DNA of 46,198 bases from a virus. Taxonomy: Duplodnaviria; Caudoviricetes. The stretch lies in the IMG/VR virus record IMGVR_UViG_3300037424_000299, positions 1 through 46,198 of that record; one strand, written 5' to 3'. The notes beneath the pieces were generated by a model. It saw only the letters and a program-made list of their open reading frames with translations, was not told the DNA's origin and ran no database searches. A program made the translations under genes and the position numbers. Shown in pieces: positions 12,332 to 40,785 of this stretch (within the stretch, counting starts at the first letter, position 1; every line of letters starts with the position of its first letter).

Positions 12332-14016
12332 TATCCACGCCTCAGTTCACGCGCCAGTTCCTCGGCTATCATGCGCGCCTCTTTTCGCCCAAAGAAGTTC
12401 TGTCCCTCCTGCGCAATAGCCAGCTTTTCTCTGCCCGAGGCAGTGTCGCTGCCACCCATCCTAAAACCCTCGTTACCGTAGGATGATGGGATCTCAAACA
12501 CGCCGCCCGATGCGTGCGGAGTAGCCGGTCCGCTCTGACTGGCGTAAGGGTTATAGTTGGGTCCGCTTGTGTATGTATTGACGTGGTTTGTTGTGATCGT
12601 GACGGTTCTTTCGACATTTGGGATGCTGTTCAGACTGGATGCGAGACTCTGCGCGGCTGACTCTTCCTCGCGCATTCGTGCGGCGGCTTCCTGGGTGTAG
12701 ACGCCCATTGCCAAGCCCCGCTCAATCAGCCCGTTTTTTTCCTCATTTGTCAGCCCGTCAATAGACAGGAGTTCTTCGGCGCGCGACAGGATACGTCGGT
12801 TTGTTGCGTCCTGGAACTGGTCCGCGTTTTCCTGCTGTTTCTGTGCATTTTCAGCCAGCTTCGCATTAACATCTAAGACCGCGTCGCTCTCTGCCCACCA
12901 GCCATATTTGATAAGTTGCGCCTTCTTTGCGGTGAGTTCGTCATGCTCCTTTTTTAGGTCGGCTTGCTTGTCTTTGTACGTTTCGATAATCCCGGTAATG
13001 TTTTCAAGCACGGAAAGCTCATTGCGATTTGCCTCGGTCATAGCCTTGATTGCCTGTTCCGCGGCTTTCTGCTCCTCCGCCAGGCGCTTCGTCATCTCGG
13101 CTTCATCTTCAAACGCGCCGGTCGCCTCGCCTGCTACTTGTTCCGCTTCTGCCAGCGCTGCCGTGTTTTCGTCGTGGGCTTGTCTAAGATCGTGAATTCG
13201 ATGGTATAGATTGACAAGCGGGATTCCATCCAGCGCGTCTTTCCAGTCCCAGCCAGCGTCTATATTTTTCTTACTTGCCGTCAGAAGGTCAGTCATTACC
13301 GGGACGGTTTTCTGTCCGATCTGCATTGTGAACCCGTCCCACGCGTCGTTAAGTTCGTCAACAGCCACGCGGTACTGTTCCGCCTGCTTGAAGCCTTCTT
13401 CTGTAACAATAAGATTGTCATCAATAGCCGCGCTCATTTCACGGATAGATTTCCCGCCCTTCTCCATGATCTTTGCCATTTCGTCGCCAGATTTCCCGAA
13501 GCGGTCGAGTAAATATTGTGTGCGCTCAACGCCAGGCGCAAGTTTCAGGTACTCATCCGACATCCGCGCCAGCCCTTCGATATTAGGCTCAAACCCGTCC
13601 TTCTGTGCCAGTTTCATCGAAGTTTTCAGCGCGTCGAATGATATACCTACATCGTCGGCTACCTGAATTAGTCGGCTCGCCTCTTCGGTGGTTGATCCTA
13701 ATGTGCGCGCGGCTTGTCCTACCTCAATAGCGTAATCTGCAAACTTCTGCCCGGTTTCATCCCATACCGCCTGTCCGACGCGGACAACATCCAGTACGGT
13801 CTGATACATAGAGCGGAAGTCGGTCCACGACATAGTGGACTTTTGGACCGCCGCCGCTTCACGCTTGGCTTGGTCCTCAAGTATTTTGCCGTTCGTCTGC
13901 ACGCGCGACTTAACGCGTTCGAGTTCAGCGACAACCTTTTCGCTTTCTCGGATCATCTTGTATGATTCCGCGTCGAACGGGATGGTTACTTTTCCACTAC
14001 CTGTCACTAAGGGCAT
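12331..14016 (-). CDS. Tape measure protein
   Basis: Ala/Glu-rich helical 561 aa with C-terminal HASGG; follows the tail chaperones. Confidence 0.85.
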   Translation of the reverse strand: MPLVTGSGKVTIPFDAESYKMIRESEKVVAELERVKSRVQTNGKILEDQAKREAAAVQKSTMSWTDFRSMYQTVLDVVRVGQAVWDETGQKFADYAIEVGQAARTLGSTTEEASRLIQVADDVGISFDALKTSMKLAQKDGFEPNIEGLARMSDEYLKLAPGVERTQYLLDRFGKSGDEMAKIMEKGGKSIREMSAAIDDNLIVTEEGFKQAEQYRVAVDELNDAWDGFTMQIGQKTVPVMTDLLTASKKNIDAGWDWKDALDGIPLVNLYHRIHDLRQAHDENTAALAEAEQVAGEATGAFEDEAEMTKRLAEEQKAAEQAIKAMTEANRNELSVLENITGIIETYKDKQADLKKEHDELTAKKAQLIKYGWWAESDAVLDVNAKLAENAQKQQENADQFQDATNRRILSRAEELLSIDGLTNEEKNGLIERGLAMGVYTQEAAARMREEESAAQSLASSLNSIPNVERTVTITTNHVNTYTSGPNYNPYASQSGPATPHASGGVFEIPSSYGNEGFRMGGSDTASGREKLAIAQEGQNFFGRKEARMIAEELARELRRG

Positions 14017-14272
14017 ATAGTCTCTCAGCCTCGTTTAGTAGTTCCGCTTGTTTCGGGTTGGACCCCGCCCACTCTGCCCAATTGGTCGAGCGCTGGCGGG
14101 ATTGATGGGCTACTGCAATGTTCTCGGCGCATATCAGGCGGCAGTATTCACCGAATAAAAAGACGCGCCGCCCGGTGATCGGTTCCAGCCCGAAGCGTTC
14201 TATCCGGCGGAGCTTTTCGATCTCGGGGGAGTATGCGCCCTCGCTTGCGTGTGCATACGCGAGGGCTTTCAC
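13997..14272 (-). CDS. Tail assembly chaperone, frameshift extension (gpT-like)
   Basis: Open in the -1 frame after the slippery site CCCAAAC. Confidence 0.7.
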   Translation of the reverse strand: MKALAYAHASEGAYSPEIEKLRRIERFGLEPITGRRVFLFGEYCRLICAENIAVAHQSRQRSTNWAEWAGSNPKQAELLNEAERLYALSDR

Positions 14273-22851: not shown

Positions 22852-22936
22852 GCTCCTGTGGCGGAAATTTGTATACGCAATAGCCCAGGAAACTATCACT
22901 CTTACGAGTTTGCGGGTTCGAATCCCGTCAGGAGCA
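22852..22936 (+). tRNA. Degenerate tRNA-Leu-like cloverleaf (non-canonical anticodon loop)
   Basis: Acceptor GCTCCTG/CAGGAGC-A, D arm GCG..CGC, variable arm ACTC-TTAC-GAGT, T arm GCGGG-TTCGAAT-CCCGT. Loop CCAGGAA lacks U33, the D loop lacks GG, and no CCA is encoded. Confidence 0.6.
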
Positions 22937-35963: not shown

Positions 35964-36725
35964 CTATGACACCCGCCGATAAGGATGTGGCGGGGTTTCG
36001 CTCGGCTCCAACATCGTCCAGTTGTACGTGTTGAGGTAGACCGGGCGCACGGATACAAACGGGAAAAACGTATAAGGTTCGTCGTCCAGCCAGTAACGGA
36101 TCAAGCCATGAGCAAACGGGAATACCGATGTCTGGCCTGCCCCTTTGACTTCCACGTTGTTGCACACGAGGAATAGATGCGGATGGGTGCGCGGGTGGTA
36201 AAGGTAGTCATCCGGTTCGATGTCCTCGAGCCTCTGGGGGTAGACTTTACCGGGCTTGAGCGGCGGCGGGTTGTTGCCGTCCATCGTGACCAGCCGCCAG
36301 CCGTTGCCGTCAAACTCCGCCGCGTGCGTGTTTCTCGAAAACGTGCGGAACTTGTCGAGCTTCGGGTCTTCTTTCGCGTTCAGGTTTTCGCCCATGATGT
36401 AATTGCGCCATGCGGTCGGGTCGGTTTCGTTTGTAAGCGCCGTTGTCTTTTTGAGCAGGTTGGCAATATTGTTTCTCGACATGCCGTAGTTGATCCCCAC
36501 AATGAAATACTGCCACTGCTTTGATATGATCGTATTGCCCCTGTCCTCAATCAGCATCACCGCCGGGCAACCTGCCCCACCGTAGGCACACGGACGGATA
36601 TCGCCGTCGCCGAAAATCTGCGTGTTGCGGTCTTCGTTGTGAGTCCACAGCGTAAGCCCGCCGTCGGCTACCTTCTCAAGCGGCGCTGTCCAAACACAGC
36701 CGCCGATCTGTGCAACTACACTCAC
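35964..36725 (-). CDS. Hypothetical protein in the lysis-module position
   Basis: ~253 aa, coupled to the SH3-like gene; no known lysin motif seen. Confidence 0.7.
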   Translation of the reverse strand: MSVVAQIGGCVWTAPLEKVADGGLTLWTHNEDRNTQIFGDGDIRPCAYGGAGCPAVMLIEDRGNTIISKQWQYFIVGINYGMSRNNIANLLKKTTALTNETDPTAWRNYIMGENLNAKEDPKLDKFRTFSRNTHAAEFDGNGWRLVTMDGNNPPPLKPGKVYPQRLEDIEPDDYLYHPRTHPHLFLVCNNVEVKGAGQTSVFPFAHGLIRYWLDDEPYTFFPFVSVRPVYLNTYNWTMLEPSETPPHPYRRVS

Positions 36726-37030
36726 GACACCCTCACCCACTGCGTAGCTCGGAATGTTCCAACATCGGGTATCTGCACAGTAAACACCATCTGCGAGTAA
36801 TCCGGGTCTGTCGGCTCCGGGTCGGGCGTGGTAATTGGCGCAACGTCAAGCCACTGCGTTTTTGTCATCCCCCCCACGGGTCCGGTCAGGCGGAAGTATT
36901 CACCCTCGCGGTATCCCATGACAGGAGTCCCGCCTTTGAGTTGGTCCTTTTGCGGACCCCCGACGAACTCCCAAACCTTCGCCACAAGTCCACTTTTGAC
37001 CTTGCCGGTTTCGAGTACAGCTATAGCCAT
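36722..37030 (-). CDS. SH3b-like domain protein
   Basis: AKVWEFVGG...QLKGGTPVMGYREGEYFRL...GMTKTQWL plus a P/T linker. Confidence 0.5.
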   Translation of the reverse strand: MAIAVLETGKVKSGLVAKVWEFVGGPQKDQLKGGTPVMGYREGEYFRLTGPVGGMTKTQWLDVAPITTPDPEPTDPDYSQMVFTVQIPDVGTFRATQWVRVS

Positions 37031-38658: not shown

Positions 38659-38891
38659 AATATCCTCCAATGAAAAAAACGACGGCGCCAACGACTAACA
38701 CTGCAAAATCCCTTCTCGGCAGTAAAACAGATACAAATAGCCCAGCATGAACAGCACAAAAAACAACACAGCAAAAACCCGTAAACAATAACCTCGATTA
38801 TCATCCACCCCATTCACTCCTCCGATTCATTATTCATTACAAGACGTAAAATAAACGTTTTAGCATCGTTACAGGCTTTGCAGTTCCGTTA

Positions 38892-38983
38892 GGCTAACGG
38901 TTTGCGTTACTTGCGCGAGCCTTGATTATTGTCCGATTGCGCCTCACGTGGCGAAGCGTCAAGTGCACGCTGTGTTAGAAGGC
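38892..38983 (-). mobile_element. Integron attC-like recombination site
   Basis: TTCTAAC...GTTAGCC ends; the bottom strand folds with an unpaired spacer and two extrahelical bases. Confidence 0.8.
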
Positions 38984-39185
38984 GCTGCGCCAAAGACACG
39001 GCAACACGAGCGTTACCAGCGCAAACACTTGAATCGATAGACAGCATGTGCATATCTTTTGCGTAATCCAACAAAGCGACCACATCGCCATCGTAATAAG
39101 ACCTACATGCACCATTGTGAACGGGTGCTCCATCACAAGACGGATTGCAGTATTCTCCACAAACAGGACATATATCTTTTTGCAT
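38907..39185 (-). CDS. Cassette-borne hypothetical protein (Cys-rich N-terminus; reads into attC)
   Basis: ATG about 14 nt after the G/TT crossover; C-terminus LLTQRALDASP is encoded by the attC. Confidence 0.65.
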   Translation of the reverse strand: MQKDICPVCGEYCNPSCDGAPVHNGACRSYYDGDVVALLDYAKDMHMLSIDSSVCAGNARVAVSLAQRLLTQRALDASPREAQSDNNQGSRK

Positions 39186-39189
39186 AGTA

Positions 39190-39228
39190 GCCTTCTAACT
39201 AGGAATTGGGTGGAAAGTTTCCACCCAA
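39190..39228 (-). mobile_element. attI-like site
   Basis: GTTAGAAGGC core preceded by the 11-bp IR TTGGGTGGAAA-N-TTTCCACCCAA. Confidence 0.55.
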
Positions 39229-40049: not shown

Positions 40050-40727
40050 TCATTTGTCGGACTCCTTTTGTGCATATTTGCGCCAGTTGCGGGCAGTTCG
40101 ATCATCCACGCCCCACCTGAAACATATTTCCTCAGTTCGTGCGGTACGTAACCAGGAAACATCATCATCGCTCAGTTGTTTCCTGATCTGCCTCCAATCT
40201 ACCTTCAACGCGTTCGCGGAAGTTTCGGAAACTTTCCGGTAATTTTCCGTGCTTTCCGCTTGTGTCACCATCACCACTTGATTACCAACAGCAACACCTC
40301 CAATAAGCAGGTAGGGGGCCACATTGACAAGAAAAGCCCACCAAGTCAACTTCCCCCCCACCCCAAGAACATCTGCCATGCTCGCGTGCGTCACCCGACT
40401 AACAGTGAACGGTACGAGGATCATCACGCCAGTGGACATAAGAGAGAAAACAAGCACAGTCATGACCTTGAAGGGAAAAGACCACTTCTTTCCGTTCGCT
40501 GGCATCTTTCTGCGCCAGCCGTCAAAAAGGTACGTCCCACCGATCACGTCGAGAATCCCCATCCCTAAACCGCTTACGCCCATCATAAATGTAATCATCT
40601 CAGAGAGTAAACCTGTAATCTCTCCCATATCCGAAGCAATAAAAGCGGCCACATAGCGGACAACTGTTACAACCGCCGCAGACCATATAAGGATTGTTGA
40701 GTAGTCATGCCCTTTTTGTTTGCTCAT
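40050..40727 (-). CDS. Four-TM membrane protein with C-terminal HTH
   Basis: Four hydrophobic segments; TEEICFRWGVDDRTARNW. Confidence 0.7.
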   Translation of the reverse strand: MSKQKGHDYSTILIWSAAVVTVVRYVAAFIASDMGEITGLLSEMITFMMGVSGLGMGILDVIGGTYLFDGWRRKMPANGKKWSFPFKVMTVLVFSLMSTGVMILVPFTVSRVTHASMADVLGVGGKLTWWAFLVNVAPYLLIGGVAVGNQVVMVTQAESTENYRKVSETSANALKVDWRQIRKQLSDDDVSWLRTARTEEICFRWGVDDRTARNWRKYAQKESDK

Positions 40728-40785
40728 ATTCTCTCGCTTTTTCACTCACTCACTTGACTTACTCTACGAAATCTTACACAGATAT

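Follow-up and report, generated by a model that had tools for sequence, protein, structure and literature searches.

How can a gene cassette of the integron type come to lie in a phage genome that carries no integrase, and from where would the required enzyme come? This question is raised by a locus on the minus strand of the window, the whole stretch of 46,198 nucleotides that was analysed, which constitutes an entire virus record with direct terminal repeats and a completeness rating of 100%. A first-pass annotation had described there an integrated integron cassette preceded by an attI-like site; its positions are all correct, with GTTAGAAGGC at 39199-39190 as the cassette start, the 10/10 complement of this start at 38983-38974, GTTAGCC at 38898-38892, an 11-bp repeat and a cassette of 301 bp (Table 1). 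Its statement that the genome holds no integrase also stands: PF00589 (tyrosine integrase) and PF00239 (resolvase-type serine recombinase) both have 0 matches in the window genome, an 89-sequence IntI profile read through stops detects no intI remnant in the window, and the site lacks the adjoining intI that a complete integron has.

Table 1. Features of the cassette locus and the gene used as anchor, in window coordinates.
Feature	Coordinates	Strand	Remarks
attC	38892..38980	-	Anaerolineae family, short subfamily, 89 bp; assigned by two-arm profile and host arms
attC boxes	R'' 38980-38974; L'' 38968-38961; L' 38912-38906; R' 38898-38892	-	
7-bp perfect palindrome	38886..38900	.	Overlaps R'; predicted to compete with attC folding
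Gene cassette	38898..39198	-	301 bp; borders at GTT cores
92-aa ORF	38907..39185	-	Residues 68-92 attC-encoded; N-terminal Cys/His cluster
R box	39190..39199	-	GTTAGAAGGC; crossover G|TT between 39199 and 39198
attI L box	39205..39211	-	6/7 match to RYYYAAC; followed by 5-nt spacer ending TA (39204-39200)
11-bp inverted repeat	39206..39228	-	1-nt centre; fold z -3.8 and -4.0, 0/200 shuffles
231-aa predicted membrane protein gene	40050..40745	-	Anchor for syntenic comparison, outside the platform

A PHROGs scan of the 87 ORFs of the phage identified terminase, portal, major head, tail and primase families, together with DnaD-like, SSB, Erf-like and methyltransferase families. The att family described below, the SSB (67% identity to an SSB from an Anaerolineae contig) and the relatives of the 231-aa gene, which were found on Chloroflexota contigs, suggest an Anaerolineae host for the phage. 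A scan for a Pc promoter returned 4 promoter-like sites in 2.3 kb, with 2.2 expected. Some observations elsewhere in the genome may be recorded here. A perfect 21-bp inverted repeat with short repeats near it (1039-1083), within the DnaD-like replication gene at 713-1504, is likely the replication origin, and a family of 19-nt direct repeats at 1730, 6437, 6789 and 44963, three copies of which are 95-100% identical, is a possible operator or promoter element. The stretch 22852-22936, on the strand opposite to most genes, has an Rfam tRNA match of 40.6 bits and no ARAGORN call.

The attC site and the gene that runs through it

The two cores of the attC, TTCTAAC (R'') and GTTAGCC (R'), keep their AAC and GTT triplets intact and, as had been noted before, are slightly off consensus, with one deviation each from the 7-nt form. 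In a constrained fold of the bottom strand, the R and L boxes form, with bulges. As a bare hairpin the site is no better than chance (z -0.66; 51 of 200 shuffles fold equally well), its unconstrained fold differs from the attC fold, and a general scan for arm complementarity does not rank it among the best 15 places; structure alone is therefore insufficient to call it an attC. Rfam gave no match at the attC or cassette locus.

The identification is carried by homology. A 20-mer of the right arm is found in 41 genome stretches; the titles of 37 name Chloroflexota lineages, one of them through a genus that we take to belong there, and those of 2 name other taxa. Most of these stretches have a matching left arm ~100 nt upstream, and the repeats recur every 0.6-1 kb. 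An integron integrase passes the TIGR02249 cut-off in four of the five genomes tested; three of those four have arms of the family in the intI flank, and the other has them on the contig that holds intI. The arms of the window attC are those of the host family consensus. We built a two-arm profile from host sites fetched via the window's own 20-mer; under this profile, the window attC scores 68.7 bits (host quartiles 61-75), whereas 200 shuffled genomes reach 12.9 at most, and there is no second attC in the window genome. Fetching the host loci with that 20-mer biases the score of the right arm upwards, but the left arm by itself scores 31.5, against 3.7 at the next best position in the window. 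The window attC is confirmed as real, at the level of sequence, by this homology to the Anaerolineae chromosomal integron family, and the earlier description of an integron cassette holds with it. The inner part of the site belongs to a short subfamily that is common to L144, L182 and L029.

In its excised form, the site is predicted to adopt the recombinogenic fold with a probability of 0.46; the value for the integrated site is 0.115 without flanks and 5e-4 with 15-nt flanks, the last being in the lowest sixth of phage sites (24 of 157 are lower). The fall to 5e-4 is due to the palindrome at 38886-38900, which pairs with R' and which the window alone possesses among 57 array ends examined. 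It has been reported that attC sites with a fold probability near 1e-5 recombine poorly (PMC5371416). The palindrome resembles two attC right ends placed tail to tail; the idea that the DNA past R' may be an inverted attC remnant is supported neither by a left arm nor by an ungapped profile.

The element bounded by these cores has the properties of a gene cassette: R'' complements its own first bases, and a single ORF, with no promoter-like site ahead of it within the cassette, covers 94% of the cassette body. The bases after the crossover point belong to the cassette and include a Shine-Dalgarno-like AGAAGG 5 nt before the ATG. What the first-pass annotation had not noticed is that the 92-aa ORF reads through the attC and stops at a TAA in the L' box (38909-38907). 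It had called the cassette ORF an ordinary phage early gene, a description that could not be substantiated, as neither PHROG nor Pfam assigns the ORF to a family. To judge from its sequence, the Cys/His cluster of the protein likely binds zinc, and our best guess is that it is a small host-interacting protein; its Atlas scores are all <0.9.

An exhaustive search gave one credible homologue, P0125 (E 4e-5, 36% over 73 aa), with P0127, P0128 and P0129 as its relatives. The conserved columns stop at residue 66, two codons ahead of the attC start, and the homologues, which end ~10 residues later, have no attC-like tail; each may be a plain gene or a host-style cassette. Four of the five representative matches to the 92-aa protein were discarded as spurious because they are long repeat proteins, and the YacG/gyrase-inhibitor name borne by the homologues was not adopted, with Pfam YacG scores of 14.6 and 13.6 bits, below the cut-off of 25.5, and no match for the window protein. 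The sole genome locus matched by the alignment of homologues is a 36-residue partial match. Protein and alignment searches of 401 Anaerolineae genomes did not find the 92-aa ORF, nor did searches of annotated phages, and a word-indexed search returned only the ORF itself; the window cassette has no copy elsewhere in the genomes or phages searched.

The attI-type site upstream

The earlier proposal that the core upstream of the cassette is attI-like was evaluated against 41 intI-adjacent host sites and 17 first sites of phage arrays, and it holds. From 80 IntI loci, 61 were taken, first cassettes were found by complementarity, and 16 attI sites within 400 nt of intI were obtained; the larger set of 41 includes 25 added via the first profile, and two are on contigs labelled as other phyla. 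Host attI sites share a pattern in which AA, four bases and TA precede GTT; an inverted repeat is frequently present as well, its right arm stopping 6 nt short of this GTT, and the register in the window is identical. The search of Anaerolineae genomes that had been suggested recovered both the attC family, in arrays beside intI, and the register and palindrome of the attI.

Four profiles were made, from the 16 host sites, the 41 host sites, the 17 phage sites and the 41 and 17 pooled. The window site ranks first of 1610 GTT positions under the latter three, from which the window was excluded, and fifth of 1610 under the 16-site profile, which is the strictest. The AA-N4-TA pattern precedes GTT in 25 of the 41 host attI sites and at one of the 1610 window GTT positions, which is the candidate attI. 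The score is low for a true site, with lower scores in 8/41 host and 12/58 pooled sites. The inverted repeat has 9/9 pairs in register, by a measure that was defined after the window had been seen; at least 8/9 pairs are found in 11/41 host attI, 2/17 phage attI and 7/1610 background GTT positions, and the in-register repeat is thus common, though not universal. L box, 5-nt spacer and R box stand in the Anaerolineae register, with the in-register repeat beside them, and on these sequence features the upstream palindrome is likely an attI docking site of the Anaerolineae type. Its right arm holds the L box; the left arm resembles a core and has the R orientation, and by analogy it may be an extra integrase site like the direct repeats that attI1 carries (PMC8946536).

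The same attC family in other phages and in hosts

A degenerate right-arm motif was found in 70 stretches of 62 viral records, mostly as arrays of 2-9 sites, compared with which the single cassette of the window is atypical. The first cassette of the viral arrays is often preceded by an attI-type site. IntI above the cut-off was present in 5 of the 50 viral records tested, two more having a divergent long match, and it is absent from 14 of the 18 viral records rated at least 90% complete. PF00589 has no match in G041, G011, G009 and G040 and one in G051; G041 and G011 contain terminases and attI-type first sites. The records G012, G028, G032, G036 and G043 carry complete phage integrons with their own IntI. 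The earlier note had proposed that a host IntI inserted the window cassette in trans; the integron cassette stands, but the host is one candidate source of the enzyme among others, given the viral IntI genes in 5 of the 50 records of this attC family, and another phage could equally have supplied it.

The phage intI genes are often on the cassette strand with the attI over their 3' end, an arrangement observed in L214 (2440-2495), L217, L215 and L262, and a sub-type among these has one base fewer between AA and GTT. In L173, the palindrome has 9/9 pairs and the same 23-nt span as the window repeat. In a quick tree, for which the host set is biased to one query, the phage IntI proteins fall outside the sampled host clusters. 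Very divergent IntI-like proteins lie beside phage arrays at L218 877-1900 (G017) and G045 13305-14261, with 257 and 204 bits, and both form long branches in that tree. In the contig L011 from an Anaerolineales bin, an attI-like site is followed by two cassettes of the phage type, and a homologue of window gene 35964-36740 lies close by; this contig is probably from a phage or prophage.

Cassettes of this family have moved. Four pairs of cassettes are 95-97% identical over their full length and three further copies are exact, while their neighbours differ, the switch occurring at GTT; some of these records possibly derive from one sampling series and would then not be independent. One near-identical cassette links the complete record G013, which has no IntI, to another phage. 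A further cassette is common to the chromosomal host integron G002, which is flanked by housekeeping genes, and the phage G031, which carries head and adaptor genes, with 89% identity over 394 nt; the attC interiors differ. The cassettes of G041 that looked like duplicates are only ~70% identical, and they were rejected as recent duplications. In L048 2610-3730 (G002), the first cassettes are phage-type, one of them encoding a cytosine methyltransferase that matches phrog_363.

On sequence grounds, the phage cassettes form a separate class. In 123 of 168 distinct phage cassettes, as compared with 9 of 121 host cassettes, the main ORF enters or crosses the attC, and in 74 of the 168 it stops at the TAA of L', as in the window; the median cassette length is 351 bp in phages and 841 bp in hosts. 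Within host arrays, read-through cassettes are found at 5/19 positions adjoining attI versus 4/101 inner ones (p=0.005), or 4/18 versus 2/97 without the doubtful contig L029, an enrichment near attI that would be expected of recent arrivals. The window core is the commonest phage cassette start (11/168 phage, 0/121 host), and an ATG follows within a few bases in 10 of these 11 cassettes, so the core likely supplies the ribosome-binding site. Among 136 representatives of phage cassette ORFs, 23 match PHROGs (E<=1e-5). DNA methyltransferase or Mom-like families account for 10 of these 23, and by our own count 10 of the 23 matches extend to within 3 residues of the attC. Comparison by eye revealed a near-identical attC interior fused to unrelated ORFs in L248 (8044-8167), the second cassette of L214 and the first cassette of L085, that is, in two phages and one host integron; the shared interior encodes a hydrophobic C-terminal tail.

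Origin of the platform and what it may mean

We assign a probability of about 0.58 to the view that the locus is an integrase-free phage platform, in which a cassette was inserted at the likely attI by an IntI from outside, supplied by the host or by a co-infecting phage. The bottom strand of the attC of a circular cassette would fold, IntI would join the folded attC at G|TT (39199/39198) to the phage attI, which is double-stranded, and the attI x attC junction would be resolved by replication; these steps are established integron chemistry, applied by inference to the window. The co-oriented cassette gene would then be expressed by read-through, with a ribosome-binding motif in the core and the stop codon in the attC. 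In this way, the phage would sample a pool of small phage-type cassettes, encoding small unknown proteins and DNA methyltransferases, which would circulate among Anaerolineae phages and leak into host arrays. For the window platform, we infer the IntI source, present-day activity and expression.

The suggestion that the phage may capture cassettes from host arrays or donate to them fared differently in its two halves. Exchange between phages and hosts has some comparative backing in the 89% identical cassette and the moves at GTT, and capture of new cassettes at the attI is independent of the window attC. Donation of the window cassette is doubtful, as there is a single attC and the hairpin over R' lowers its predicted fold. 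With only one attC, excision would need attI x attC recombination, which is inefficient, and the R' hairpin would lower excision further.

The presence of phage-encoded IntI in 5 of 50 records means that the platform may instead be a relic of an ancestral phage integron that lost intI and most of its cassettes, leaving an attI and one cassette that are largely inert. We consider this rather unlikely. It would agree with the two additional divergent IntI matches, the position of the phage IntI outside the sampled host clusters of the quick tree, the location of attI over the 3' end of intI in several phages, the L173 palindrome of the same 23-nt span, and the low attI score, blocking hairpin and single cassette of the window. 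However, the window retains no intI remnant, neither its attI nor either arm of its attC shows damage, and the 10-nt complement has no mismatch. Moreover, IntI-free records with an attI and long arrays are the majority, and the near-identical cassette of G013 ties an IntI-free phage to another one.

A ready-made block of attI and cassette might also have been acquired from another phage or from the host by homologous or illegitimate recombination, without any IntI event in the window genome, a possibility on which the comparison of relatives at the locus bears. With the 231-aa gene as anchor, 35 loci were fetched and 31 examined, four being dropped for lack of downstream DNA or a weak partial match; searches with two single upstream proteins found no relatives. 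Genes other than those of the window follow the anchor together with an attI and at least 6 attC in L255, an attI and 2 attC in L248, and an attI and at least 1 attC in L240, where the contig ends, and in all three the attI and attC fall within 0.6 kb downstream of the anchor gene; in L257 and L242, attC sites are farther away. No platform was detected in 13 anchor records with at least 2.4 kb downstream, by a profile that would miss divergent attC families, and there is no DNA-level similarity across the locus in the 31 anchor loci. In L236 and L241, the genes follow one another as in L255 up to a shared late gene, and there is no platform. In viral contigs, the attI 19-mer had 0 matches and a looser attI motif 14, none with attC arms. 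The expectation that relatives would show other cassettes or empty sites was therefore realized in its first part, by the three loci with other cassettes after the same anchor; neither an empty attI nor another cassette at the exact window site was found in the 31 anchor loci and the viral-contig motif searches. A search of sequencing runs listed one DNA run with this phage, possibly its source and stored as contigs, in which neither junctions nor a cassette circle were found, and it listed no RNA run.

The platform is thus wholly present or absent after the anchor (L255 versus L236 and L241), which calls for a non-IntI event; the window phage encodes an Erf-like annealing protein, and such routes have been suggested by Qi et al. 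(PMC9892861). Yet the window holds only one cassette, whose right border lies exactly at R', and in related records neighbours switch at GTT. Acquisition of a whole block would account for the arrival of the platform and not for its varied content, and as a full explanation of the locus we find it improbable.

It is very improbable that IntI placed a lone cassette off target in an attG site (GWT), the palindrome being an unrelated operator or terminator. According to 10.1101/2022.09.11.507474, IntI inserts at GWT, single attC sites are common, and a SALIN is a single attC without integrase or another nearby att site; the attI score in the window is also modest. Against this, none of the 1610 GTT positions matches attI better than this site, no other combines the two conserved features with an in-register palindrome, and the first cassettes of many phage arrays follow attI-type sites. 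Chance palindromes in ordinary phage DNA, for which the ordinary thermodynamics of the hairpin might speak, are refuted by the profile score (68.7 bits, where the best of 200 shuffles has 12.9) and the taxon-restricted exact matches.

Clusters of attC in phages are already known from published work (PMC9892861), and they have been reported to be rare and perhaps accidental. Qi et al. (2023) described CALINs in virulent and uncharacterised phages, 17 in 10,705 genomes, with at least 2 attC required for each; 5 of 6 phage attC were recombined by IntI1, complete integrons in phages were also reported, and an attI ahead of a CALIN was seen only in a cryptic Shewanella prophage in which intI was also present (PMC9892861). 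A term search for Chloroflexota in one supplement of that paper gave no match. Phage CALINs resemble the window in having attC-bounded cassettes without intI in phage genomes, and they have DNA methyltransferase cargo and a proposed exchange with bacterial integrons in common with the phage cassettes studied here; the window differs from them in having one attC. It shares with SALINs, as defined in the preprint cited above, a single attC, one gene and the lack of an integrase, and a standard scan would call it a SALIN, but its attI-type site sets it apart from the strict definition, and it lies in a phage. The Anaerolineae chromosomal integrons (IntI TIGR02249) have the same attC arms, attI register and palindrome, whereas the window has no intI, an attC of 89 bp instead of the ~130 bp of conserved host attC, a cassette shorter than the host median and an ORF through the attC, which is infrequent in hosts. 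Complete phage integrons with IntI share the attC family, the phage-type cassettes and the attI before the first cassette, and differ in possessing the integrase. Finally, PMC7439510 describes synthetic attC sites in coding sequence, in which attC structure and coding are compatible with recombination; that arrangement was engineered, whereas in phage cassettes it is natural and common.

New here are the single cassette, the family-matched attI, the complete integrase-free phage, the 62 further viral records and the read-through architecture. In a literature search that covered few subscription papers and no preprint supplements, neither platforms with an attI but no integrase nor read-through cassettes were found described for Chloroflexota phages. 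If such platforms are common in Anaerolineae phages, integrons would be more than a bacterial defence store, since phages would also use them to exchange small genes and methyltransferases. To our knowledge, how integron cassettes are made is still an open question, and the read-through cassettes, their enrichment near host attI and the homologues that end at the attC start offer a handle on it. A doubtful but consequential possibility is that Anaerolineae phages share an integron system of their own, mostly consisting of an attI only and a borrowed IntI, in which a ready-made attC module is joined to the 3' ends of phage genes and the resulting cassettes reach host arrays. If true, the attC module would replace the last codons and stop of a gene and supply a ribosome-binding site, the window would hold a freshly made cassette whose attC starts where the similarity to the tail-less homologues ends, and phages would be a place where new gene cassettes arise.
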